Origin: a virus
Taxonomy: Duplodnaviria; Caudoviricetes
IMG/VR virus record: IMGVR_UViG_3300027983_002388
Length of the DNA stretch: 64,000 bases
Reading direction: 5' to 3' (one strand)
Each line of letters starts with the position of its first letter. Within the stretch, counting starts at the first letter, position 1. Of the stretch, positions 2,048 through 38,718 are shown piece by piece. A model generated the notes under the pieces. That model had not been told where the DNA came from. It did no database searches and saw only the letters and a program-made list of their open reading frames with translations. The translations under genes and the position numbers were made by a program.

Positions 2048-2129
2048 GGCTTTGTGGTGAAATTGGCAAACGCACAGCACTCAAAATGCTGCGTCGAAAG
2101 ACTTGTGGGTTCGAGTCCCACCAAAGCCA
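2048..2129 (+). tRNA. tRNA-Leu(CAA), canonical long variable arm
   Basis: GGCTTTG/CAAAGCC-A, CAGCA-CTCAAAA-TGCTG, variable arm GTC-GAAA-GAC. Confidence 0.95.
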
Positions 2130-2247
2130 CTGTTTCGATTTCTGGATCTGGCTCTTACTCGTTGTGAGTAGAAACACCTTTTTTTGGTGGGGTTATAGAA
2201 GTCAAACCTCCAACGGTGATCTCGTAAAGATCACAGGAGAAAGTAAA

Positions 2248-3420
2248 GTGAAGAAAGTCCACATCAATGTCGGAACGATTGGTCACATTGACCACGGGAA
2301 GACGACTCTGACAGCAGCAATTCTCGCTGTTCAGTCCGAGAAGGGTTACGCAAAAAAGAAAGCATACGGCGACATCGCCAAGGGCGGCACCGTTCGTGAC
2401 GTTACCAAAACGGTAACGATCACCACGTCGCACGTTGAGTATGAGACGGATACCCGTCACTATGCTCACATTGACTGCCCCGGTCACGCCGACTATGTAA
2501 AAAATATGATTACCGGGGCTGCTCAAATGGACGGCGCTGTATTGCTCGTCAATGCAGCAGACGGTCCTATGCCTCAGACGAAAGAGCATATTCTGCTCGC
2601 TCGTCAGGTGGGCGTGCCGGATATTGTAGTATTCCTCAATAAGTGCGATCTTGTCAAAGACGAAGAATTGCTGGAACTGGTCGAGATGGAAACAAGAGAC
2701 TTGCTGACGAAGTATGGCTTCGACGGCGAGAAGACTCCGTTTATCCGTGGAGCAGCAAAACCTGCCTTGGATAATCCTGCTGATCCCGCAGCAAGCAAGT
2801 GTATTGTAGAATTGTTGGCGGCTCTGGATTCTTATATTCCTGACCCCAGCCGTTCTATCGACCGTCCCTTCTTGATGCCCGTCGAAGGTGTTCACAATAT
2901 CGAAGGTCGTGGCTGCGTAGTCACGGGCAAGATCGAGCAAGGAACCATCACGGTCGGAACCAAAGTTGAAATCCTTGGGTTGACTGATATTCTGGAGTCA
3001 GTTGTCACCAGCGTCGAGGCTTTCAATAAGCAACTGGAATATGGAGAAGCTGGACAGAATGTCGGTTTGCTGCTGAGAGGCATCAAGGCCGATCAAGTTC
3101 AGCGTGGACAGGTTGTGGCACAACCACGAAGCATCAAGCCTCACACCAAGTTCAAGAGCGAAATTTACGTCTTGGGCAAGGATGAGGGCGGGCGTCACAC
3201 CCCGATCTTCAATGGTTACAAGCCACAGTTCTTCTTCAGAACTACCAACGTCACCGGCCTTGTCCAAATGCCGGAAGGAATTGAGTTGGTCATGCCGGGC
3301 GAGAACACTTGCCTGTTTATCACCCTGGATAAGCCGATTGCTATCGAAAAAGGTAGTCACTTCGCCATTCGTGAGGGTGGTATGACAGTCGGTTCTGGCG
3401 TCGTGACGGAATTGCTGTAA
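2248..3420 (+). CDS. tuf: Elongation factor Tu (Planctomycetes-type effector region)
   Basis: [40 protein letters not shown]; GTG start after AGGAGA. Confidence 0.97.
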
Positions 3421-6473: not shown

Positions 6474-7189
6474 AAATATCGTTCTGCACAACTTGTATGG
6501 GCAGGGTTCATCATCTAATGAGAACCCTGCCCATAAATATTCATGTCGCTCCAGATTGCGAATTTGTGTTGCTTAACTATGGCAGCAAAGATGGAATGCA
6601 CGAGTGGGTCCGAGACAATATGCGTCCTTGGATAAATCGAGGAACCATCAAGTATTATAGAACTCAGCTTCCTGAATACTTCGTGGCGACACATGCCAAA
6701 AACATTGCACATCGCCAAGCGACCGGCGATATTCTTTGCAATTTAGACGCAGACAATTTCTTGATTGACGGCTTTGTTGAATTGGTTAAAAAGACCATGA
6801 GCGACAAACAAAGCATTATGACTGCTCCTATATTTGATATGTTCAATATGTCGGGCAGTTGCGGAAAGATAGCAGTTCATCGAGAGCATTTCTATAGCGT
6901 AAATGGATACAACGAAGACATCAATTTGGGATGGGGGTGGGATGATATTGATTTTGAATTACGTGCAGCCATGCACAACAAATTGAAATACGCTCAAACT
7001 CCCGTGAAGTTTTGCCGAGTAATAGACCACGACGAATCAGATCGAGTCAAGAACTTTCGCACCAAAAACTTGAAGGATTCCCAACGGACAAATGGGGAAC
7101 TGTTGGAAACGGTGAAAAATACTAGAAATTACGTTGTCAACAAAAACAGAGAGTGGGGAGTTGCATTAGATTTATCCAGTGATATATAA
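6470..7189 (+). CDS. Glycosyltransferase (GT2/GT7-like)
   Basis: KISFCTTC, NLDADNF DxD motif, GYNEDINLGWGWDDIDF. Confidence 0.85.
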   Translation: MKISFCTTCMGRVHHLMRTLPINIHVAPDCEFVLLNYGSKDGMHEWVRDNMRPWINRGTIKYYRTQLPEYFVATHAKNIAHRQATGDILCNLDADNFLIDGFVELVKKTMSDKQSIMTAPIFDMFNMSGSCGKIAVHREHFYSVNGYNEDINLGWGWDDIDFELRAAMHNKLKYAQTPVKFCRVIDHDESDRVKNFRTKNLKDSQRTNGELLETVKNTRNYVVNKNREWGVALDLSSDI

Positions 7190-7192
7190 GAC

Positions 7193-7417
7193 ATGATTAA
7201 ATTCAAAGACTGGATGCAGACAAGAGAAGCCAAACTCCGAGAAATGGGGAGTGGTCCATATATTGGAAACTGCACTGACACCAGTGATTATCAAGTAATT
7301 GGTGCTTGTAGCGATCAAAATTCCGAAGAAAAGAACAAGGCGTATCGAAAAGGTGGCGTAGACCACAAAAAAGTCCACAAGCATTCCGACAAGATCAGAT
7401 CAAAAGTCGGTATATAA
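7193..7417 (+). CDS. Putative capsid-packaged protein (MIKFKDWMQTRE N-terminus)
   Basis: ATATATAA 3 nt upstream of ATG; CTS-like N-terminus. Confidence 0.65.
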   Translation: MIKFKDWMQTREAKLREMGSGPYIGNCTDTSDYQVIGACSDQNSEEKNKAYRKGGVDHKKVHKHSDKIRSKVGI

Positions 7418-7420
7418 GGT

Positions 7421-7840
7421 ATGATGACGTTCAAGGAATTCGTGGGATCGCAAGAAGTACAGCCGCAGGTGCAACAGCCTCAAGCGGCTGGTTCTCAGCA
7501 ATCATCCAAATGGAAGGCCACAAAAGATGAAATTGTGGGCTACTGGAAGAACTTACGTCCCGACACACCCGTCCAAATGCGAGCCATTGATTACACCCAT
7601 AAGGGATCAACATATGGCGAAGACGGAATGCGACTAACAGGCAGTCCGCAGTTTATTGCATCAATTTTAGCCAGAATGAAAGAGTTGTTGACTTACGAAA
7701 CTCCAACAACCAAACTCGCCGTTACATATCGACAAACAGAGTCCCCCAGCAAGATGGCAATGGGACAAAGTAAAACTTCCTACGTCTTTTACGTTGCTGC
7801 TCGTCAACGTGGCGGCAAAACTCAAATCGCACCCAACTAG
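7421..7840 (+). CDS. Putative capsid-packaged protein (MMTFKEFVGSQE N-terminus)
   Basis: TATATAA 3 nt upstream of ATG; CTS-like N-terminus. Confidence 0.7.
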   Translation: MMTFKEFVGSQEVQPQVQQPQAAGSQQSSKWKATKDEIVGYWKNLRPDTPVQMRAIDYTHKGSTYGEDGMRLTGSPQFIASILARMKELLTYETPTTKLAVTYRQTESPSKMAMGQSKTSYVFYVAARQRGGKTQIAPN

Positions 7841-7923
7841 ACTTGATTTTATCTTTCGTGATTGTATACTCATAACTTGTGTTGAGAACCAACCAAGGCC
7901 CCAAAGGAGAGTTTACAGTGAGT

Positions 7924-8370
7924 ATGAAAATTGCGTGGACGATTGCCGGAATTGTCGGAATTTCCGCTCTGTGTGTGGGATCAATGACGTGGCACGCCTG
8001 GAGTGTCCAGAAGGAAAACCAACGACTCTCGCTGGTGAATTACATCTATGTTGCGGAGCATCGTATTCTCAAGGATGAAATCTCTGAACTTGCATCTAAG
8101 CCAACATACGATCAGGGATATAAAGACGCTCTGATCCGCATCGGCGGACCACAAGTCCCTGGTGCATACCAAGATGGCTGGGACGACGCTCAGAAGCTCT
8201 GTGGTGCGGAAAACAATTACGCAGACGGGTATCACGCTGCAATCCAACAGTTTGGATATACTAAGACTACAACAATGGCTCGTTGGTTGGTTCCCGAACC
8301 AAAAGACAAGGCTATTGCTGCGGATAAGTCCAACAAGGAAGGCATCACGCCTGCTAAATTGGAAAAGTAA
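7924..8370 (+). CDS. Hypothetical membrane-anchored protein (repeated GYxDG motifs)
   Basis: N-terminal TM helix; TTGATT-N16-TATACT upstream at 7843..7870. Confidence 0.7.
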   Translation: MKIAWTIAGIVGISALCVGSMTWHAWSVQKENQRLSLVNYIYVAEHRILKDEISELASKPTYDQGYKDALIRIGGPQVPGAYQDGWDDAQKLCGAENNYADGYHAAIQQFGYTKTTTMARWLVPEPKDKAIAADKSNKEGITPAKLEK

Positions 8371-8450
8371 TCCAAACCGCTATAGAAAGCATTGGCTACA
8401 GTAAATCGGGTGATTTAGGGAAAGGTACGTCCTTTCCTTTGGGGAAACAA

Positions 8451-8555
8451 AGACAGCCAGGATGTTGGCCTAGAAGTAGCCAACATTCAAAGAGTAGGGT
8501 TACACAGGGACTTCCTGTTAACGGACCCTTTTGGTGTAATAACACACTGGCCGAG
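8451..8555 (+). ncRNA. Stand-alone mimic of the 23S rRNA GTPase-associated centre (H42-H44, L11-binding domain) with a 38-nt insertion; transcript may span about 8390..8636
   Basis: AGACAGCCAGGATGTTGGCCTAGAAGTAGCCAACATTCAAAGAGT [insert] GTGTAATAACACACTGGCCGAG aligns to 23S nt 1046-1112 (E. coli numbering, from memory) with compensatory changes. Confidence 0.88.
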
Positions 8556-8593
8556 CCACCCAACACTCGACACTGGCAATGCTGGTGCCTGGA

Positions 8594-8636
8594 GAGCATG
8601 TCGCCGACGAAGGCTTAGGCGACATGCTCATTTTTT
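8594..8636 (+). terminator. Intrinsic terminator
   Basis: GAGCATGTCGCC/GGCGACATGCTC 12-bp stem followed by ATTTTTT. Confidence 0.8.
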
Positions 8637-8651
8637 GAAAAGAAAGATGAA

Positions 8652-8834
8652 ATGATAGCTTGTATTTGCGGTGGATTTTTGGAACTAGGTTACATCCTAG
8701 TGATGGCAATTATTTCTATTTCGGGAGCAATATTTGGCACCAACTGGTACAATACAGCACGATATAAAAAGTACATAAAATACAAAGACAAACACAAAGG
8801 CTGTGGTTGCGACTGTCACAAAGAAGACGAGTAG
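8652..8834 (+). CDS. Small membrane protein
   Basis: One TM helix, Cys/His-rich tail. Confidence 0.6.
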   Translation: MIACICGGFLELGYILVMAIISISGAIFGTNWYNTARYKKYIKYKDKHKGCGCDCHKEDE

Positions 8835-8837
8835 TGC

Positions 8838-8919
8838 GGCCCTGTGGTGGAATTGGAATACACATGGGACTTAAAATCCCACGCCGAAAGGATTGCGGGT
8901 TCGAGTCCCGCCAGGGCTA
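8838..8919 (+). tRNA. tRNA-Leu(TAA), canonical long variable arm
   Basis: GGCCCTG/CAGGGCT-A, TGGGA-CTTAAAA-TCCCA, GCGGG-TTCGAGT-CCCGC. Confidence 0.95.
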
Positions 8920-8922
8920 CGT

Positions 8923-8951
8923 TTTACAAGATGCCTAAAACGTGGTAAAAC
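8923..8951 (+). promoter_or_regulatory. Sigma70-like promoter for tRNA-Leu(TAG)
   Basis: TTTACA-N17-TAAAAC with TG extension. Confidence 0.5.
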
Positions 8952-8952
8952 T

Positions 8953-9033
8953 GGCCGAGTGGTGGAATGGCATACACGATGGTTTTAGGAACCATTGCCG
9001 CAAGGCTTGCAGGTTCAAGTCCTGTCTCGGTCA
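8953..9033 (+). tRNA. tRNA-Leu(TAG), canonical long variable arm
   Basis: GGCCGAG/CTCGGTC-A, ATGGT-TTTAGGA-ACCAT, variable arm GCC-GCAA-GGC. Confidence 0.95.
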
Positions 9034-9061
9034 CTAATGAGGAATGAGGAATGAGGATACG

Positions 9062-9556
9062 ATGGAAGTTTCGGTTGGCGATTACGGTCGCATGATGTTC
9101 GAGATGATGGTTGCTGAAAAAGGCAATCTCCCGGAACACTGGCAAAGCATTCAAGTCCTTGCTGAACCTCTAGTTCGTCAGCTTATTGCCCTCAACGGTC
9201 AAATGACTAACGGTGGATATGAAATCCACGGTTATGTTGAACCGGGCAACAAGAAAATATTATCCAAACACGAACTGATCCAAGCCGCTCAAGAAAAAGC
9301 CCTAAAGTTCCCTGCCAATAAATTGAAGATAGGCGACCGTCTTTGGTTGATTGAAGATGGTGAGCTTGACATGAGTTTCGACCAAGACCCTGTGGCAGTA
9401 AGTGATATTGGCAATACAGGCAGCATCTATGTTGAAATGCAAGGCGGATACGTTGCCCAAATCCACCCTTCTAACCTTGTGTTGAAGGCACCAGACGATT
9501 GGGATGAAAACGAAGATCAATATCGTTCTGATGATTACTGGTTAAATGCAAAATGA
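9062..9556 (+). CDS. Hypothetical acidic protein
   Basis: ORF; GAGGA SD. Confidence 0.7.
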   Translation: MEVSVGDYGRMMFEMMVAEKGNLPEHWQSIQVLAEPLVRQLIALNGQMTNGGYEIHGYVEPGNKKILSKHELIQAAQEKALKFPANKLKIGDRLWLIEDGELDMSFDQDPVAVSDIGNTGSIYVEMQGGYVAQIHPSNLVLKAPDDWDENEDQYRSDDYWLNAK

Positions 9557-9652
9557 AAATTAAGCCTATTGATTCAACAAAAAAGAAGAAAAGCCTTTGG
9601 GCGTCGAAGTCATCTACTTGAAAAGAGAATCAGACGGCAACTGGAAAACCTT

Positions 9653-10537
9653 ATGAAAGTTTTTTACAACGAAAATCAGTCAGTGGAAAATAATCCAAGC
9701 ATTTCGCCAAGTGCCAAGAAGCCCACGGCAGTATTGAAGTCGTGGCAGGAAATTGTGCCTGTCGAGATCATGCCAGTTGTTCCTGTAACCGTTGCAGACT
9801 TGGAGTTGGTGCATGACAGAGAATACGTTAATGATGTTATCTCTTGTCGCATAGAAAATGGGTTCGGCAACAAACTGAAAACCATTGCTGATTCTTTGCT
9901 GTGGACAAATGGTAGTTTTCTTAGTGCTGCTAAATACGCAGTTGAAAACAAAACAAATACAGTTAGCCCAACAAGTGGTTTTCACCATGCAGGATATTAT
10001 GCTGGTAGTGGATTTTGTACATTTAATGGACTTATGTTGGCGGCAATAACGCTCAAAAATGCCATGCTGGTCAATCGAGTTGCCATTGCTGATTTAGATA
10101 TGCACTATGGCAATGGCACGGATTGCATCCTTGAGCAGTTATCCATTCGAGGAATGAAAGATTTCATCTCTCATTATACTTTTGGCGGGCATTTAGACAC
10201 TGTTGATCGTGGAGCTAAAAGTCGGCTTGCTTTTGGCCAAGCATACACAAAACTTTTGCCCGACATTATCACTAGGTTGCTTGATGATGCAGATGTTCTG
10301 TTCTATCAGGCTGGGGCTGACCCTCATGTGAATGATCCATATGGCGGCGTTCTCACGACTGAAGAGTTAAAAGAAAGAGATCGCATTGTTTTTACAATTG
10401 CGAAAGAAAGAGGAGTGCCGGTTGTTTGGAATTTAGCAGGCGGGTATCAAACCGACTTTTCTAAAGTCTTGGAAATCCACAACAACACAGCTTTGTTGCA
10501 CGTTGAGATATTCGAGAATGCACCGGAAACCTTGTGA
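9653..10537 (+). CDS. Histone deacetylase/AcuC/acetylpolyamine amidohydrolase family protein
   Basis: SGFHHA, GFCTFN, DLDMHYGNGT, YQAGADPH, AGGY. Confidence 0.92.
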   Translation: MKVFYNENQSVENNPSISPSAKKPTAVLKSWQEIVPVEIMPVVPVTVADLELVHDREYVNDVISCRIENGFGNKLKTIADSLLWTNGSFLSAAKYAVENKTNTVSPTSGFHHAGYYAGSGFCTFNGLMLAAITLKNAMLVNRVAIADLDMHYGNGTDCILEQLSIRGMKDFISHYTFGGHLDTVDRGAKSRLAFGQAYTKLLPDIITRLLDDADVLFYQAGADPHVNDPYGGVLTTEELKERDRIVFTIAKERGVPVVWNLAGGYQTDFSKVLEIHNNTALLHVEIFENAPETL

Positions 10538-12250: not shown

Positions 12251-12472
12251 ATGGCAGTTGAAACAGATATTACAAAGCGTTGGGAACAAGGGATAGATCA
12301 CCATCCCAAAAGCATCGCTTTGTTCAAAAAACTAGCAGAAATCGACTTCAAATTCGGTGGAGATTTCTTCGACTGGTCATCAGGTGGCGATGGAGACAAT
12401 GGCGAACATTTAATGTACGAAATGGACATTATGTTCGAGAAAGAAGATGCTGAAATAGGAGCTTCATCATGA
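12251..12472 (+). CDS. Hypothetical protein
   Basis: ORF; GGDGDNGE motif. Confidence 0.65.
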   Translation: MAVETDITKRWEQGIDHHPKSIALFKKLAEIDFKFGGDFFDWSSGGDGDNGEHLMYEMDIMFEKEDAEIGASS

Positions 12473-13614
12473 AGCGACACACAACCGATCTTAGGCATGA
12501 TTGGAAAAAGACCATTGAAGGTCAGGGAATGTTATTTCATACATTTGATGGCGATATTTATTGGGACGAGTCAGCATACTACGAGTTAAACAGTCCTGAA
12601 GTAGACACCATAGAGGCGGCTACTTACGAACTGAATGATCGTTGTCTTGAAGCTGTTCAACACGTCATCGACAATGATCTGTTAGATGCTTTCTTGATCC
12701 CGCCCGAATTCCATCAGTTTATCCAAGACAGTTGGGAGAGAGACGAACACACCATTTATGGTCGGTTTGACTTTTCCTATGACGGAAAAACCCAACCAAA
12801 GATGTTGGAGTTCAATGCCGACACGCCTACCGGCCTGATAGAAGCTGCTGTTACCCAATGGTATTGGGCAAAAGACAAGTTTCCAAATCGGAACCAATTC
12901 AACTCAATACACGAGCGGCTAATTAAGGTTTGGAAAGAACTGAAGTCCGTGACGCCAGGAGTATTGTATTTTACGGCACTCGCTGGCAATCTCGAAGATT
13001 ACATGAACGTCAATTATCTTCGAGACACTGCCATCCAAGCCGGGTGGGATACTGAATATATTGACATTGAAAACATCGGATGGAACGAAGGTCGCCGTAC
13101 ATTCACCGACCTGAACGAAAATCCAATACAGACATGCTTCAAGCTGTATCCTTGGGAATGGATGCAGACCGACGAGTTTGGCAGAAAACTATTCCTCAAG
13201 ACCACCAAATGGCTTGAGGCTCCGTGGAAGGCAATCCTTAGCAACAAGGCCATTCTGCCTATATTGTGGGAGTTGTTTCCCGATCATCCAAACTTATTAG
13301 AAGCATCGTTTCAACCAATTCGCACAAAACCTTACGTTCAGAAGCCAATTCTGAGTCGTGAGGGAGCTAATGTGCAAATATTTGAGCATGGCGAATTGCT
13401 GCTTAAAACTGATGGTCCTTACGATGGACCATGTGTATATCAACAACTATGGGAACTTCCCAACTTTGATGGCAATCACGCCTGCATTGGTAGTTGGTTG
13501 GTCAACGGCTGGGCTTGTGGAATAGGCATTCGAGAAGACAAAACCATTGTAACGGGGAACCTGAGTCGGTTCGTACCGCACATTTTCGGTGTTCGACCAA
13601 AATACGGGAGTTAA
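12469..13614 (+). CDS. Glutathionylspermidine synthase-like ATP-grasp ligase (YgiC/YjfC family)
   Basis: GRFDF, LEFNADTPTGLIE, FKLYPWEW, SNKAIL, KPILSREGANV. Confidence 0.93.
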   Translation: MKRHTTDLRHDWKKTIEGQGMLFHTFDGDIYWDESAYYELNSPEVDTIEAATYELNDRCLEAVQHVIDNDLLDAFLIPPEFHQFIQDSWERDEHTIYGRFDFSYDGKTQPKMLEFNADTPTGLIEAAVTQWYWAKDKFPNRNQFNSIHERLIKVWKELKSVTPGVLYFTALAGNLEDYMNVNYLRDTAIQAGWDTEYIDIENIGWNEGRRTFTDLNENPIQTCFKLYPWEWMQTDEFGRKLFLKTTKWLEAPWKAILSNKAILPILWELFPDHPNLLEASFQPIRTKPYVQKPILSREGANVQIFEHGELLLKTDGPYDGPCVYQQLWELPNFDGNHACIGSWLVNGWACGIGIREDKTIVTGNLSRFVPHIFGVRPKYGS

Positions 13615-17610: not shown

Positions 17611-17891
17611 GGGGATGCAACTTGTCGAGTCGTCGCTGTAATCCCCTCAAGGGGTTGTAGAGGAAGTTCTGGACACTACTGCTTTTAAGGTAGGAGCGAA
17701 AACCTCGAAAGGGGCTAATAGTGTTTGAACTACCGAGGGTGCAAGCCATACAGACCAAAATCTCGTAAGAGGTACGCCGGTGAGCAGGGCGTCATCATGG
17801 TCGGGTCGGTGCAGTCCGCAAGGACCGGGGGCAACTCCGAGATAAATGACGACATAGAACAGAATCCAGGCTATGGATAAGTTGCATCTCC
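17611..17891 (+). ncRNA. rnpB: RNase P RNA with a strongly reduced specificity domain
   Basis: P1 GATGCAACTTGTC/GATAAGTTGCATC, P2, P3, GAGGAAGTTCTGGA...ACAGAATCCAGGCT P4, P5 CAC/GTG, P6 CTGCT/AGCAG, P7 GGTAG/CTACC, P15-P18, AGATAAATGACGAC. Confidence 0.92.
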
Positions 17892-17915: not shown

Positions 17916-18707
17916 ATGCGTGCCGAAATTGTCCACGTTACGGACCACGCTTTGTTGCGATGGAAAGAACGTGCGTCGAAAACAGGTGAAGTCAACGTAG
18001 AAGAAATCGTTCAGGCTGTAAAAGAATCCAAGGTCATCAAAAAAAACGAACCTTTGCCTTACCCGATGCCTCGTTTAGATGGATCAGTTTACAGCTTCAA
18101 TGCCGGAGTGTTGTTCATTCTCGAATCAGTAACCATTGATGAATATCGACTCGTCACAGTTATCGCCGACGAGCCGACCTATCAACGGATTGCTCGACCG
18201 CCGAAGAAACAACTTAATCCTCGAAAGAGACAGAAATACGAGGAAGTTCAAAAGGTGCAAATCGACATTCCTTGCTTTGAAAGTTTCATCGAAGAACGTC
18301 AATGGTTGACCGACGAGAAACGAAAACTCGAAAGTGAACTGGCAACAACAGCGAAGAAATCTTCCACTCGCAAAGAAATATTGAAGGTGTGGGGCGAGAT
18401 TGAAGCCCGACTCACCGAGAACAAACCTCAATATCTCGAAGAGCGGAAAAAATCAGGAGACGGATATGTTGACTATGGTTCTCTTCTTTTGCAAATTATC
18501 AGAGAGTTAAAAGAAATACGCTCTGAACAACAGGAATTACGTAACCTAATCGAAGGCTCCAATGGACAACAACCGAGATCACCGAGCAATCGGAAAAAAG
18601 CTAGACCTCTTCATGTTCAGCCCTCTATCGCCGGGTTGTCCGATCTGGCTCCCGAAGGGAGTTGTGCTTTATCAGTCTTTGCTGAACCGCATTCGTCAAC
18701 TCAATGA
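17916..18707 (+). CDS. Hypothetical protein (VTDHALLRWKER motif, coiled coil)
   Basis: ORF with AGGAG SD; 3' end overlaps thrS. Confidence 0.7.
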   Translation: MRAEIVHVTDHALLRWKERASKTGEVNVEEIVQAVKESKVIKKNEPLPYPMPRLDGSVYSFNAGVLFILESVTIDEYRLVTVIADEPTYQRIARPPKKQLNPRKRQKYEEVQKVQIDIPCFESFIEERQWLTDEKRKLESELATTAKKSSTRKEILKVWGEIEARLTENKPQYLEERKKSGDGYVDYGSLLLQIIRELKEIRSEQQELRNLIEGSNGQQPRSPSNRKKARPLHVQPSIAGLSDLAPEGSCALSVFAEPHSSTQ

Positions 18708-19785
18708 AGCCAATGGTTGCCAAGAAGTTCGGACCCCACTTATATGGAAGTCCGAACTTTATGCAACCAGCGGACACCTGGATCACTATGCAAAAAATAT
18801 GTTCTTCGTCAGTGATAAGCCTGCTGGCGAGTCCCACGAAGAAGGACATGAAGATCAGTGCTTAAAACCAATGAATTGTCCTGGGCATATGGAGATATTC
18901 CGCTCGAAACAGTGGAGCTATCGAGACTTGCCTGTTCGATTCGCTGAATATGGTCCTTTACACCGCAATGAAGTTTCTGGTGCCTTGGGTGGGCTAACTC
19001 GCTGTCGTGCATTCTGCCAGGATGACGCCCACATTTTCGTTTCGCCGGACAACCTACAAAGCGAAATCAAACGAATCCTTGTCATGATCGAAAGAGTTTA
19101 CGGATGGTTTGGAATGAAGTTCCGATCCGTACTCAGCACTCGTCCTTATAACTTCATGGGCGAGAAGTTGGTTTGGGATAATGCTGAGGCGAACCTCGAA
19201 GATGCTTTATGCGAAAATGGATTGAAGTTCGAGATTGCCCATAAAGACGGTGCGTTTTATGGTCCAAAAATAGACTTCATTGTGACTGATTCCCTTGGAC
19301 GTGATTGGCAAACAGCAACAATCCAATTGGACTTCCAGTTGCCTCAAAGATTCGGTTGTACCTATACCGACAAGGACGACAAAGAGCAAACTCCAATTGT
19401 CATTCACAGAGCAATATACGGCAGCTTTGAAAGATTCATTGGTGTATTGTTGGAACATACTGACGGGCATCTACCATTATGGTTGGCTCCTGTTGGTGTA
19501 ACCATTGCACCAATCAGCGACAAAGTTGCTGAATACGCTGATGAGATCAAAGAGGTTTTGCTTGCTCATGGAATTCGGTGTGAATGCGATCACTCGAATC
19601 GAACTCTGCAACAGAAGATTGCCATCGGGTACGATAAAAAAGTACCCTACATGGTCATCTTGGGAGAGAAAGAAAAATCCGCAAGAACCGTTACCCTCAA
19701 ACAAATGAGATCAACTGCTGTCGCACAGGAAACCTTATCTTTGGAAGTATTCCTTCCTCAGATGGTCGCACTGGCGAAAGAGTAA
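18562..19785 (+). CDS. thrS: Threonyl-tRNA synthetase, catalytic and anticodon domains only
   Basis: RDHRAIG, LKPMNCPGH, HRNEVSGALGGLTRCR, AFYGPKID, TIQLDF, VIHRAIYGSFERF. Confidence 0.95.
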   Translation: MDNNRDHRAIGKKLDLFMFSPLSPGCPIWLPKGVVLYQSLLNRIRQLNEANGCQEVRTPLIWKSELYATSGHLDHYAKNMFFVSDKPAGESHEEGHEDQCLKPMNCPGHMEIFRSKQWSYRDLPVRFAEYGPLHRNEVSGALGGLTRCRAFCQDDAHIFVSPDNLQSEIKRILVMIERVYGWFGMKFRSVLSTRPYNFMGEKLVWDNAEANLEDALCENGLKFEIAHKDGAFYGPKIDFIVTDSLGRDWQTATIQLDFQLPQRFGCTYTDKDDKEQTPIVIHRAIYGSFERFIGVLLEHTDGHLPLWLAPVGVTIAPISDKVAEYADEIKEVLLAHGIRCECDHSNRTLQQKIAIGYDKKVPYMVILGEKEKSARTVTLKQMRSTAVAQETLSLEVFLPQMVALAKE

Positions 19786-37594: not shown

Positions 37595-38542
37595 TCATCG
37601 GAAAAACTCCGTGTGATCCACGAATTTGAAGCCGCAACGGGCGGCAAAGGTCTTGTCGGTCGTCATGTCACCGACGTAAGTGCATTTACGAGGATCGAGC
37701 TTGTATTTGTAGATCAACTCCACGCCCATTCCAGGACCGGGCTTCCGACAATAACAAGTAATCGGAGGAACCTTGTGAGGACAATACAAGATTTCCTTGA
37801 ATTCCACGCCCAACTGCTTTGTGGTTTCTGCAAAACAGGCTTCGGCATCTGCCGCTGTGAGTTTTCCTTTGGCGATGCCTGACTGATTGCTGGCCCCCAG
37901 GATTAAGACTCCCTGAAGACCTACGATTCGTTTGAGTCGAACAGACCGCTGTTTAATGGCTCGAACTTGATCCGGCGAAACCGGATATTTCTCTTCACCA
38001 ACATGGGTTCGGAGTGTGCCATCAAAATCAAAAATGGCAGCTTCATTGACCCAATCAGCGGGATAAATCCGCACGAACTTTTCAGATTTTACCGAAGCGA
38101 ATCCCTCTGCAACCGTGGGCTTTTCAAAGTCTTTGCGATATTTGTAGAGAACGGCGACAGGGAAAAGATTCGGGTCGTCTTTGTACGGAGCCAACTTGTG
38201 GTCGTCGGGATGAAGAATCTTTCCGCAGCGTTCCATCATGCGACAACAAGCGTTGAATTGAGCGTCTTCAAGCGACGTATCCATCAGCACAAAATGGACA
38301 TCAACTCCAACGTCTTTTGCGGCTTTGAGAACTTCGGCCCGGCTCGTTTTGGTCGCATATAGATTGTCCATGACGACATTCTTGCCTGCCCGAAGTGCGG
38401 CCAGCATGGGCGAAATGAGGTCATTCACCTTGCCGCCCAAAGTATCCCGATTCAATCGGGTGTATCCCTGGTCAACAAAACGCTTTGTGACCGTTGTTTT
38501 CCCACCCGCAGGCATTCCGCCAACCAAAACGACTTCTGCCAT
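37595..38542 (-). CDS. Polynucleotide kinase-phosphatase-like (AAA_33 kinase plus HAD/GmhB-type phosphatase)
   Basis: GGMPAGGKTT, LNRD, VMDN; DFDGTL, SNQSG, CRKPGPGM, YVGD. Confidence 0.85.
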   Translation of the reverse strand: MAEVVLVGGMPAGGKTTVTKRFVDQGYTRLNRDTLGGKVNDLISPMLAALRAGKNVVMDNLYATKTSRAEVLKAAKDVGVDVHFVLMDTSLEDAQFNACCRMMERCGKILHPDDHKLAPYKDDPNLFPVAVLYKYRKDFEKPTVAEGFASVKSEKFVRIYPADWVNEAAIFDFDGTLRTHVGEEKYPVSPDQVRAIKQRSVRLKRIVGLQGVLILGASNQSGIAKGKLTAADAEACFAETTKQLGVEFKEILYCPHKVPPITCYCRKPGPGMGVELIYKYKLDPRKCTYVGDMTTDKTFAARCGFKFVDHTEFFR

Positions 38543-38575
38543 GAGTTGCTCCTTTTGAAGTTGTAAAGACCAGAA

Positions 38576-38604
38576 ACTATACCACAGAAGACTTCTTGTG
38601 TAAA
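38576..38604 (-). promoter_or_regulatory. Sigma70-like promoter
   Basis: Minus strand TTTACA-N17-TATAGT with TG extension. Confidence 0.7.
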
Positions 38605-38611
38605 GCAACAA

Positions 38612-38718
38612 CAAAAAGGCTTCAAAGTATCTCTTTTACAGCGACAGAATATGAGGAAAAGACCAAAAAGGCTTCAAAGTATCTCTTTTACAGCGACAGA
38701 ATATGAGGAAAAGACCAA
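38612..38718 (+). repeat. 52-bp tandem duplication covering the leader and SD of the GT2 gene
   Basis: CAAAAAGGCTTCAAAGTATCTCTTTTACAGCGACAGAATATGAGGAAAAGAC, two copies. Confidence 0.95.

Follow-up and report, generated by a model that had tools for sequence, protein, structure and literature searches.

Why would a phage encode a free-standing copy of a functional centre of the ribosome? This question is raised by a 64,000-nt stretch of DNA from a large freshwater phage (IMG/VR record IMGVR_UViG_3300027983_002388, Caudoviricetes; hereafter the window), in which a segment of the plus strand resembles the GTPase-associated centre (GAC) of 23S rRNA, that is helices 42 to 44 (H42-H44). By comparing this segment with 23S rRNA and with relatives in other phages, we found that it is almost certainly a phage RNA selected to adopt the GAC fold. 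The RNA family to which it belongs is widespread among the tRNA genes of big phages and apparently undescribed. As far as can be judged from sequence, the RNA is probably a decoy of the ribosomal site for uL11 and the translational GTPases.

The likeness to 23S rRNA was first measured with Rfam. In a cmscan of 8371-8660, window positions 8442-8561(+) matched positions 1078-1159 of the bacterial large-subunit model (LSU_rRNA_bacteria, RF02541), covering helices 42-44, with 32.9 bits and an E-value of 1.3e-8 for the 290-nt search. The gathering score of 50 was not reached because merely an 82-position piece of the model (1078-1159 of 2925) is present, and a gathering-level Rfam scan of the whole window listed tRNAs and not this fragment. 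Besides the LSU piece, no other Rfam family matched the element region at E up to 10. We then retrieved E. coli K-12 rrlB as a reference. Once a hairpin (8496-8533) is removed, 48 of 58 nucleotides of rrlB 1051-1108 are identical to window 8456-8495 plus 8534-8551, and the flanking AGACA (8451-8455) and CGAG (8552-8555) are identical to rrlB as well. The equivalent positions are A1067 at 8472, U1072 at 8477, U1092 at 8535, A1095 at 8538, A1099 at 8542, U1060 at 8465, A1088 at 8493, U1082 at 8487 and A1086 at 8491, with the pair G1051-C1108 at 8456-8551. All the nucleotides predicted to make the tertiary contacts U1060-A1088, U1082-A1086, G1071 on G1091-C1100 and 1072 on 1092-1099 are thus found in the window, and these contacts would hold the core together. 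A preliminary description of this DNA had reported the same identity count, flanks and equivalences, and all of them are correct against the retrieved gene and the window sequence.

The same description had placed a 38-nt hairpin between the equivalents of 1090 and 1091, a 12-bp terminator at 8594-8636 and flanks other than rRNA around the element, and these assignments also hold. The H43-H44 junction (1087-1091) is indeed not continuous, being split by the insert 8496-8533, a hairpin with the helices AGGGU/ACCCU and (A)CAGG/CCUG(U); insertion at this site is family-wide. On the 3' side of the core, a 12-bp stem (8594-8605 with 8618-8629) is followed by AUUUUUUG; a simple terminator scan missed this hairpin because of its 12-nt loop. 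Around the element are a protein gene, this terminator and tRNA genes. The minimum free energy fold of 8385-8640 has a z-score of -5.0. The open reading frames (ORFs) that overlap the element are mechanical calls only. The parts of the RNA are as follows.

8389-8637, plus strand: RNA gene of a large phage, putatively a small stable non-coding RNA
8441-8561, plus strand: GAC-like core, with the equivalents of the top of H42, H43 and H44
8389-8412, plus strand: 5' strands of three outer closing helices, predicted to pair with 8564-8588 and so to close an RNA of ~200 nt
8418-8438, plus strand: 5' hairpin of 8 bp with loop UACGU (prediction)
8441-8455, plus strand: 5' strand of the H42-like extension, GGG and an internal loop ending in AGACA (Rfam LSU alignment to 1078)
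8456-8460, plus strand: 5' strand of closing helix P1 (1051-1055), pairing with 8547-8551
8462-8486, plus strand: H43-like hairpin (1057-1081) with the 1067 loop (covariation, invariant positions)
8487-8495, plus strand: U1082...A1086 turn and junction GAGU (1087-1090) (covariation, conservation)
8496-8529, plus strand: variable arm P3, a 34-nt hairpin (base pairs covary in the family)
8530-8533, plus strand: linker UUUG between P3 and H44 (family conservation)
8534-8546, plus strand: H44-like hairpin (1091-1103) with the 1095 loop (family conservation)
8547-8561, plus strand: 3' strand of P1 (1104-1108), CGAG and 3' strand of the H42-like extension (Rfam LSU, rrlB identity)
8564-8588, plus strand: 3' strands of the outer closing helices (thermodynamic prediction)
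8594-8637, plus strand: intrinsic-terminator-like hairpin, 12 bp with a 12-nt loop, and U run

No near-identical phage record was found for window 7000-10500, and the preliminary description had treated the element as a singleton. Rather, it belongs to a large family, in which it is the smallest; at the insertion site the others have arms of 45-340 nt. A first relative came from a blastn search of phage records, which pointed to an unannotated intergenic region of Yersinia phage fHe-Yen9-04 with both halves of the element, ~165 nt apart. Exact-pattern scans of IMG/VR gave 10 and 78 loci for the H43-like half and, among the matches listed, at least 116 loci for the H44-like half; in most pattern loci both halves occur in order, 48-370 nt apart. 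A covariance model (R1) built from 20 short-insert members yielded 100 matches in 95 phage loci, 72 of which were full length at E below 1e-9. The window element matched R1 over the full model length (90.2 bits, E 4e-19), partly by construction as it is one of the 20 seed sequences. Since 80 of the matches lie outside the seed, the family is real. Among cultured carriers we found Ralstonia RSP15, Acinetobacter ME3, Yersinia fHe-Yen9-03 and -04, Serratia BF, several Erwinia pEa_SNUABM phages, Xanthomonas XaC1 and XacN1, Pectobacterium CBB, Cronobacter GAP32 and Aeromonas 4_4572, together with the Prevotella Lak megaphages. The element is unannotated in all of them; it is located at 287.8 kb of Yersinia fHe-Yen9-04 (LT960551), 95.7 kb of Ralstonia RSP15 (LC121084) and 162 kb of Acinetobacter ME3 (KU935715).

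The helices of this family covary strongly. In the 72-sequence alignment fitted to the model, standard pairs filled 93.1% of cells compared to 65.8% in shuffles, and the covariation score was 0.668 versus 0.162, with 0 of 500 shuffles as high; sliding the partners by 1-3 columns gave at most 0.155. Because this alignment was fitted to the model, we recounted on a structure-blind MAFFT alignment of 20 sequences and obtained similar values (92.6% paired versus 67.5%; covariation 0.667 versus 0.183), and RNAalifold recovered P1, both H43 parts and P3 from it unguided. All nine modelled pairs (9/9) of the closing helix P1 covary, as do the base pairs of P3, which vary freely at its base. Single pairs likewise change with their pairing kept, such as 1058-1080 (UA 25, GC 18, AU 16, CG 3) and 1082-1086 (UA 43, AU 9, CG 5). 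On this evidence the compensatory changes in the relatives are those of an RNA. The proposal of a free-standing phage RNA gene with a selected GAC-like fold is thus backed by covarying homologues in phages, with 100 model matches and strong covariation.

Since the search patterns had fixed one half each, we counted the conservation of each half solely in loci found via the other half. In this unbiased subset, U1060, G1062, G1063, U1066, G1071, U1083, A1085, G1087, A1088, G1089 and U1090 were invariant (40/40), as were G1091, U1092, G1093, U1094, A1098, C1100, A1101 and C1102 (31/31), and A1095 was kept in 30/31. Over all sequences, U1060-A1088 and G1071/G1091-C1100 were present in 72/72, and in the UUUG linker the two middle U were found in 72/72 and the G in 68/72. 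The invariant set includes partners of the tertiary contacts described for the GAC, namely C1072/C1092, C1072-G1099, G1071/G1091 and G1071-C1100 (PMC2952862). A1095 makes no tertiary contact in rRNA and touches cofactors (PMC6239185), so its retention hints at a ligand on the A1095 face.

Positions 1072, 1092 and 1099 add a tertiary-level observation. The phage family mostly has U-U-A at this triple versus C-C-G in bacterial 23S, and GU versus AA at 1089/1090, hence U1090 would pair with A1101; both features, first noticed in the window, are family-wide. The state of 1072 was associated with that of 1092-1099 (U/U-A versus C/C-G; Fisher p 0.0023, with few independent events), with two exceptions in which C1072 occurs with U-A. 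In the divergent second copies L067 1119-1237 and L061 3842-4086, C1092-G1099 comes with C1072. As read from the alignment, the three positions covary in the way that the rRNA base triple would predict. Three contigs carry two copies of the element, L061:3842-4336 (in tandem), L067:1119-2366 and L031:2701-5058, and L061 and L067 each combine a copy that has the bacterial-type C/C-G triple with a second one that has U/U-A. The linker G and A1103 seemed to swap G and A, but inconsistently across sequences, and this reading was dropped.

The part of the RNA without counterpart in rRNA is P3, which is present between 1090 and 1091 in every member and is followed by UUUG. Its length ranges from 34 nt in the window, the shortest seen, through 45-261 nt in the other aligned members to ~340 nt in the longest class; by sequence, the window element is the most compact family member. 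At the start of P3, ~14 of the 72 arms show a kink-turn (K-turn)-like arrangement. This putative motif lies three pairs above the junction (NNC-GA-G opposite three bulged bases, then GA-GNN) and occurs in L004, L011, L045, L059, L063, L066, L070, L035 and others. The L013 class and L124 carry in P3 a hairpin in which 13 bases in a row are those of the universal sarcin-ricin loop (SRL); the carriers are L013, L015, L016, L021, L023, L050, L071, L086, L120 and L124. Its stem reads UUCCA/UGGAA in one lineage and UUGCA/UGCAA in another, a compensatory change, and the GAGA loop is lost in the close relatives L039 and L047. The window element lacks this hairpin, no T-loop motif was found in the P3 arms, and the inserts of relatives matched no Rfam family. 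At the opposite end of the RNA, the H42 internal loop, whose rRNA counterpart is the Kt-42 site (PMC2952862), is kept among the members seen in the window and in L007/L264 only. L264:14130-14275 is identical to L007:3360-3505 and lies on a 424-kb metagenome contig, the two representing one phage; beyond the element, no similarity was found between the window and this phage, a 259-kb piece of which is labelled provirus in IMG/VR and has a weak match to the TROVE (Ro-like) domain.

Could the family have been taken from a cellular genome? In 185,579 bacterial and archaeal species (one genome each), the H44-like pattern gave 91 matches, of which ~7 fit the family model (one weakly). All of these lie on contigs of metagenome-assembled genomes, and thus this is essentially a phage family. 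The five archaeal matches that we inspected all fall within protein-coding sequence, in two cases at what looks like a GTPase G1 motif, and no rRNA gene occurred among the inspected matches from these genomes. An origin from a particular cellular rRNA was rejected on that ground, and the family is, on the sequences compared, not copied from any sampled cellular rRNA. One member, L231:3189-3349, sits on a 118-kb contig binned as Candidatus Peribacteria (Candidate Phyla Radiation).

To which genes is the element adjacent? In the window it is flanked by a 163-codon ORF ending at 8370 and a small 60-codon ORF downstream (8652-8834), and two tRNA-Leu genes follow on the same strand, 278 nt away. 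Across the family, a tRNA lies within 3 kb of 50/72 elements (three or more tRNAs at 31) and within about 100 nt of 21/72, and for nearest tRNAs within 500 nt the strand is that of the element in 55/55 cases. The RNA of most members is probably cut out of a tRNA precursor; the window element, unlike most, has its own terminator. No protein family recurs next to the element, the best cluster being a helix-turn-helix protein at 5 of ~70 loci. We also searched carrier genomes for proteins that could act with the RNA. A phage-encoded L11 partner was rejected, as an L11 gene was present in 0/5 genomes. L12 was above the family cut-off in 0/4, with one weak 17-bit match in G006, and RtcB was not found in the carrier genomes searched. 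A TROVE (Ro) domain was matched weakly in 1/5 and in none of the window ORFs scanned. The suggested partnership with the EF-Tu encoded by the window phage is not supported, since an EF-Tu-type GTPase domain was found in 0/5 other carrier genomes. Given the absence of a phage L11, EF-Tu or L12 partner and of a conserved neighbour, the partner should be a host component.

At the RNA level, the L013-class relative is informative, most of its element being present in seven runs recorded as RNA. We mapped four of these runs onto 3.4 kb of L013. In a 14-Mb wastewater metatranscriptome, contigs covered the L013 element only (6888-7282), and in a gut metatranscriptome coverage was restricted to 6866-7304; the two other mapped runs cover the flanks too. 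A 469-nt contig of the gut run consists of a 439-nt unit plus a 30-nt overlap and is circularly permuted, with 7304 joined to 6866 (the joint being ambiguous by three T, up to 7307 joined to 6869). As L013 position 7308 is the first base of the next tRNA, a tRNA-Arg, the inferred 3' end of the RNA adjoins the 5' end of that tRNA, which fits cleavage by RNase P. According to this one contig in one run, the L013 RNA is a discrete species, either circular or abundant with head-to-tail template jumps.

What would a phage gain from such an RNA? The GAC folds autonomously, and L11 recognises its tertiary fold and needs it for binding (PMC6239185). Considering this specific and autonomous binding fold, its preservation in phages whose hosts span many phyla, and the lack of an L11 gene in the carriers searched, we take the RNA for a decoy that would bind host uL11, an assignment towards which we lean, if narrowly. 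The phage RNA would capture host uL11 and so act as a sponge of the ribosomal stalk base. In the window subtype, which keeps the H42 internal loop (the Kt-42 region, where L10 is positioned), the L10-(L7/L12) stalk base may be bound too. Bacterial L11 is able to bind GAC RNA of the eukaryotic (U-U-A) type, and ribosomes exchange both L11 and the stalk proteins in vivo. Translation can do without L11, RelA activation cannot, and UAG read-through rises when L11 is limiting. The resulting L11-poor ribosomes would still translate, would fail to activate RelA and would terminate poorly with release factor RF1; alternatively, the RNA might capture some factor needing the GAC-L11 surface. The outcome could be a blunted stringent response or a shifted release-factor balance, specific effects that we regard as doubtful, and any physiological consequence of L11 capture is speculative. 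Phages with a large investment in tRNAs and translation factors would be well served by such sponge effects. In its most complete version, proposed here tentatively, a free-standing and possibly circularised replica of the factor-binding platform, made up of the GAC with the H42 kink region in the window phage and an SRL-like loop in others, would capture uL11, the stalk proteins or the factors dependent on them and thereby reprogram translation control in the host, for instance by preventing RelA activation or impairing RF1.

Several observations weigh against a decoy for uL11. Since uL11 is mostly ribosome-bound, a sponge would face tens of thousands of ribosomes as competitors, and none of the RNA runs contains the window element. 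The large variable P3 arms, with their K-turn-like and SRL-like elements, suggest that part of the function is outside the GAC core; moreover P3 sits within H44, where it may affect folding or the access of L11. In the unbiased subset position 1067 was A and G equally often (A 19, G 19, U 2), and 1096 and 1097 as well as 1061 and 1068-1070 vary; positions 1061, 1067 and 1069 are reported to be non-conserved in rRNA too (PMC6239185). The idea that the RNA strictly mimics the face contacted by factors and thiostrepton is accordingly weakened: A1095 is kept, and A1067, being A or G equally, is not. Finally, for H44 alone an alternative register (GUGU/ACAC, with an AAYA loop) is energetically preferred. 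We favoured the rRNA register because C1092-G1099 pairs there and would give C-A mismatches in the GUGU/ACAC register, which is disfavoured by the two copies with C1092-G1099; just these two sequences discriminate in favour of the rRNA register.

The diversity of P3 leads to a competing explanation, in which the GAC fold is only a closing module that is compact and resists nucleases, possibly chaperoned by L11, and P3 is the functional part. By means of this module the two RNA ends would meet, perhaps to be ligated into a circle. Such a structural role would account for a P3 that varies by lineage from 34 to ~340 nt, for the K-turn-like base in ~14/72 arms and the SRL-like hairpin in one clade, and for the circularly permuted 439-nt unit of the relative in an RNA library. 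It would also fit the RNA ligase (PF09414) found in 5/5 tested carrier genomes, a count that has no control set of big phages without the RNA, and RNA ligases are common in large phages. However, the GAC core is the sole part common to all members and is far better conserved than any P3, the plain 34-nt hairpin of the window offers little cargo, and A1095 is conserved though unneeded for the fold, so that we consider this role unlikely. A decoy might also be aimed at a target other than L11, for instance a defence toxin or protein directed at the GAC or SRL, a translational GTPase, RelA, a release factor or a thiopeptide. Here the SRL-like hairpin of one clade, with 13 consecutive nucleotides and a compensatory stem change, and the conservation of the cofactor-contacting A1095 would find an explanation. 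There are precedents in the pseudo-ToxI phage RNA decoy of a toxin (PMC3475682) and in VapC toxins that cleave the SRL (PMC5175351). Still, near-universal conservation across very different hosts fits a universal partner better than a lineage-specific defence, A1067 is not conserved, the GAGA loop is lost in L039 and L047 and the window has no SRL-like element, which makes this possibility rather improbable.

The neighbourhood of tRNA genes could also mean that the RNA holds or chaperones phage tRNAs or serves as a processing spacer in their precursors. The elbow of an incoming tRNA comes into contact with the GAC-L11 platform of the ribosome, and the family lies close to tRNA genes on their strand (within 3 kb at 50/72, ~100 nt at 21, 55/55 on the same strand), with the inferred 3' end of the L013 RNA at the RNase P site of the next tRNA. 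But such clustering possibly reflects just shared promoters or processing of stable RNAs, no tRNA lies within 3 kb at 22/72 elements, and in the window a terminator of its own and a small ORF separate the element from the next tRNA. The base which meets the tRNA elbow, A1067, is variable as well. A tRNA-related role has thus little chance of being correct. Smaller still is the likelihood of a cis-acting leader, in which an rRNA-mimicking protein site would control the terminator 8594-8636, the 60-codon ORF and the tRNA-Leu genes. The order of terminator, ORF 8652-8834 and two tRNA-Leu directly after the element would suit such a leader, and the L10 leader, which acts by mimicking this 23S stalk-base region, is a precedent. 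Yet no alternative (antiterminator) pairing is evident, what follows the element in relatives is tRNAs or unrelated genes with none conserved, and no Rfam leader family matches. A last possibility is a chimeric assembly or a functionless remnant of host rDNA picked up by the phage; the high identity to bacterial 23S over 58 nt is what first brings it to mind. It is ruled out, to near certainty, by about a hundred homologues with compensatory changes, by family features (the P3 insert and the UUUG linker) absent from the rRNA genes found, and by a 1.2-kb stretch that is complete in four DNA runs from four studies, three of freshwater and one of an estuary. As these runs are independent, a chimera with host 23S rDNA, which the preliminary description had considered, is excluded.

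We next compared the phage RNA with known systems. With the 23S GAC (H42-H44, 1051-1108, the 58-60-nt uL11/thiostrepton domain) it shares its helices, the 48/58 identity, the same tertiary-contact nucleotides (PMC2952862), a 1072/1092/1099 triple that covaries alike and, in the window, the H42 internal loop at the place of Kt-42. It differs in being free-standing among tRNA genes, in having a closing helix P1 of arbitrary sequence and an extra arm plus UUUG between 1090 and 1091, and in that A1067 is not fixed. Ribosomal protein leaders, especially the rplJL (L10) leader RF00557, are likewise extra-ribosomal RNAs that imitate the 23S stalk-base region for protein binding. Those leaders, however, are cellular, act in cis on their own mRNA and are loosely rRNA-like, whereas the phage RNA is a near-exact copy including the tertiary fold and has no ribosomal protein gene. 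Accordingly, neither RF00557 nor any other ribosomal protein leader matched at the element at E up to 10, and no ribosomal protein gene lies downstream. The proposed logic, an abundant stable RNA titrating a protein by mimicry of its ligand, is that of 6S RNA, of CsrB/RsmZ and of pseudo-ToxI (PMC3475682); fold and target are unrelated, and the function of the phage RNA is deduced rather than established.

In terms of setting and architecture, the closest comparisons are with GOLLD and ROOL (PMC12286853), structured phage RNAs that often adjoin tRNA genes, the larger members of the present family reaching ~450 nt. No match to GOLLD, ROOL or group I or II introns was found in the window region at E up to 10 or in the loci of seven relatives at E up to 0.1. 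To our knowledge, neither GOLLD nor ROOL contains a copy of an rRNA domain. Bacterial Y RNAs (PMC4201824) are similarly modular, closed by pairing of their ends and equipped with a domain mimicking a translation RNA; unlike these Ro-bound, tRNA-mimicking RNAs, the phage RNA has no Rfam match to them, and TROVE was weak in 1/5 carriers. We found no description of the family in Rfam 15 or in the full-text literature, subscription journals being largely outside the latter. That viruses mimic tRNAs and that leaders of cellular mRNAs mimic rRNA is textbook knowledge, but neither Rfam 15 nor the literature searched offered a precedent for a viral RNA that copies a functional centre of the ribosome and acts in trans.

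If the uL11 decoy reading is correct, the family would add to the known viral RNA mimics a new class, one directed at a functional centre of the ribosome. Binding of uL11 would give the phage a handle on the stringent response, release-factor choice and factor recruitment, and would explain the company of tRNA arrays, aminoacyl-tRNA synthetases and, in the window phage, EF-Tu. As the carriers include known cultured jumbo phages and the Lak megaphages, the question is directly testable at the bench. The window copy would be the handiest member for such experiments, being the shortest, keeping the H42 loop and having its own terminator. Whatever the function, some hundred natural variants of a classic RNA-folding model become available through this family; their insertion point is defined, and they put the 1072/1092/1099 triple to a natural test.

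The remainder of the window is that of a phage with its own translation-related genes. Phage-type proteins include a Dda-like helicase, a DnaB-like helicase and collagen-like tail fibres, all assigned by PHROG matches, and a DNA polymerase A. A complete EF-Tu with all three domains is encoded at 2086-3420, a class II aminoacyl-tRNA synthetase core with an anticodon-binding domain at 18562-19785 and a polynucleotide kinase/3'-phosphatase at 37595-38614. Six tRNAs were found by Rfam and four by ARAGORN, those at 163-239 and 1805-1881 being Rfam-only, and the four typed by ARAGORN are all tRNA-Leu. At 17617-17889 (+) lies a class A-like RNase P RNA (53.7 bits, gathering score 100, E 9e-16), which by its sequence is strongly reduced, with 273 nt compared to the 367 positions of the model. 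In another carrier, a phage transfer-messenger RNA (L012:1661-1968, 114 bits) belongs to the same tRNA array as the family member. Finally, just downstream of the RNA/tRNA cluster, the window encodes a histone-deacetylase-family protein (9569-10537) and a glutathionylspermidine synthase (12469-13614).

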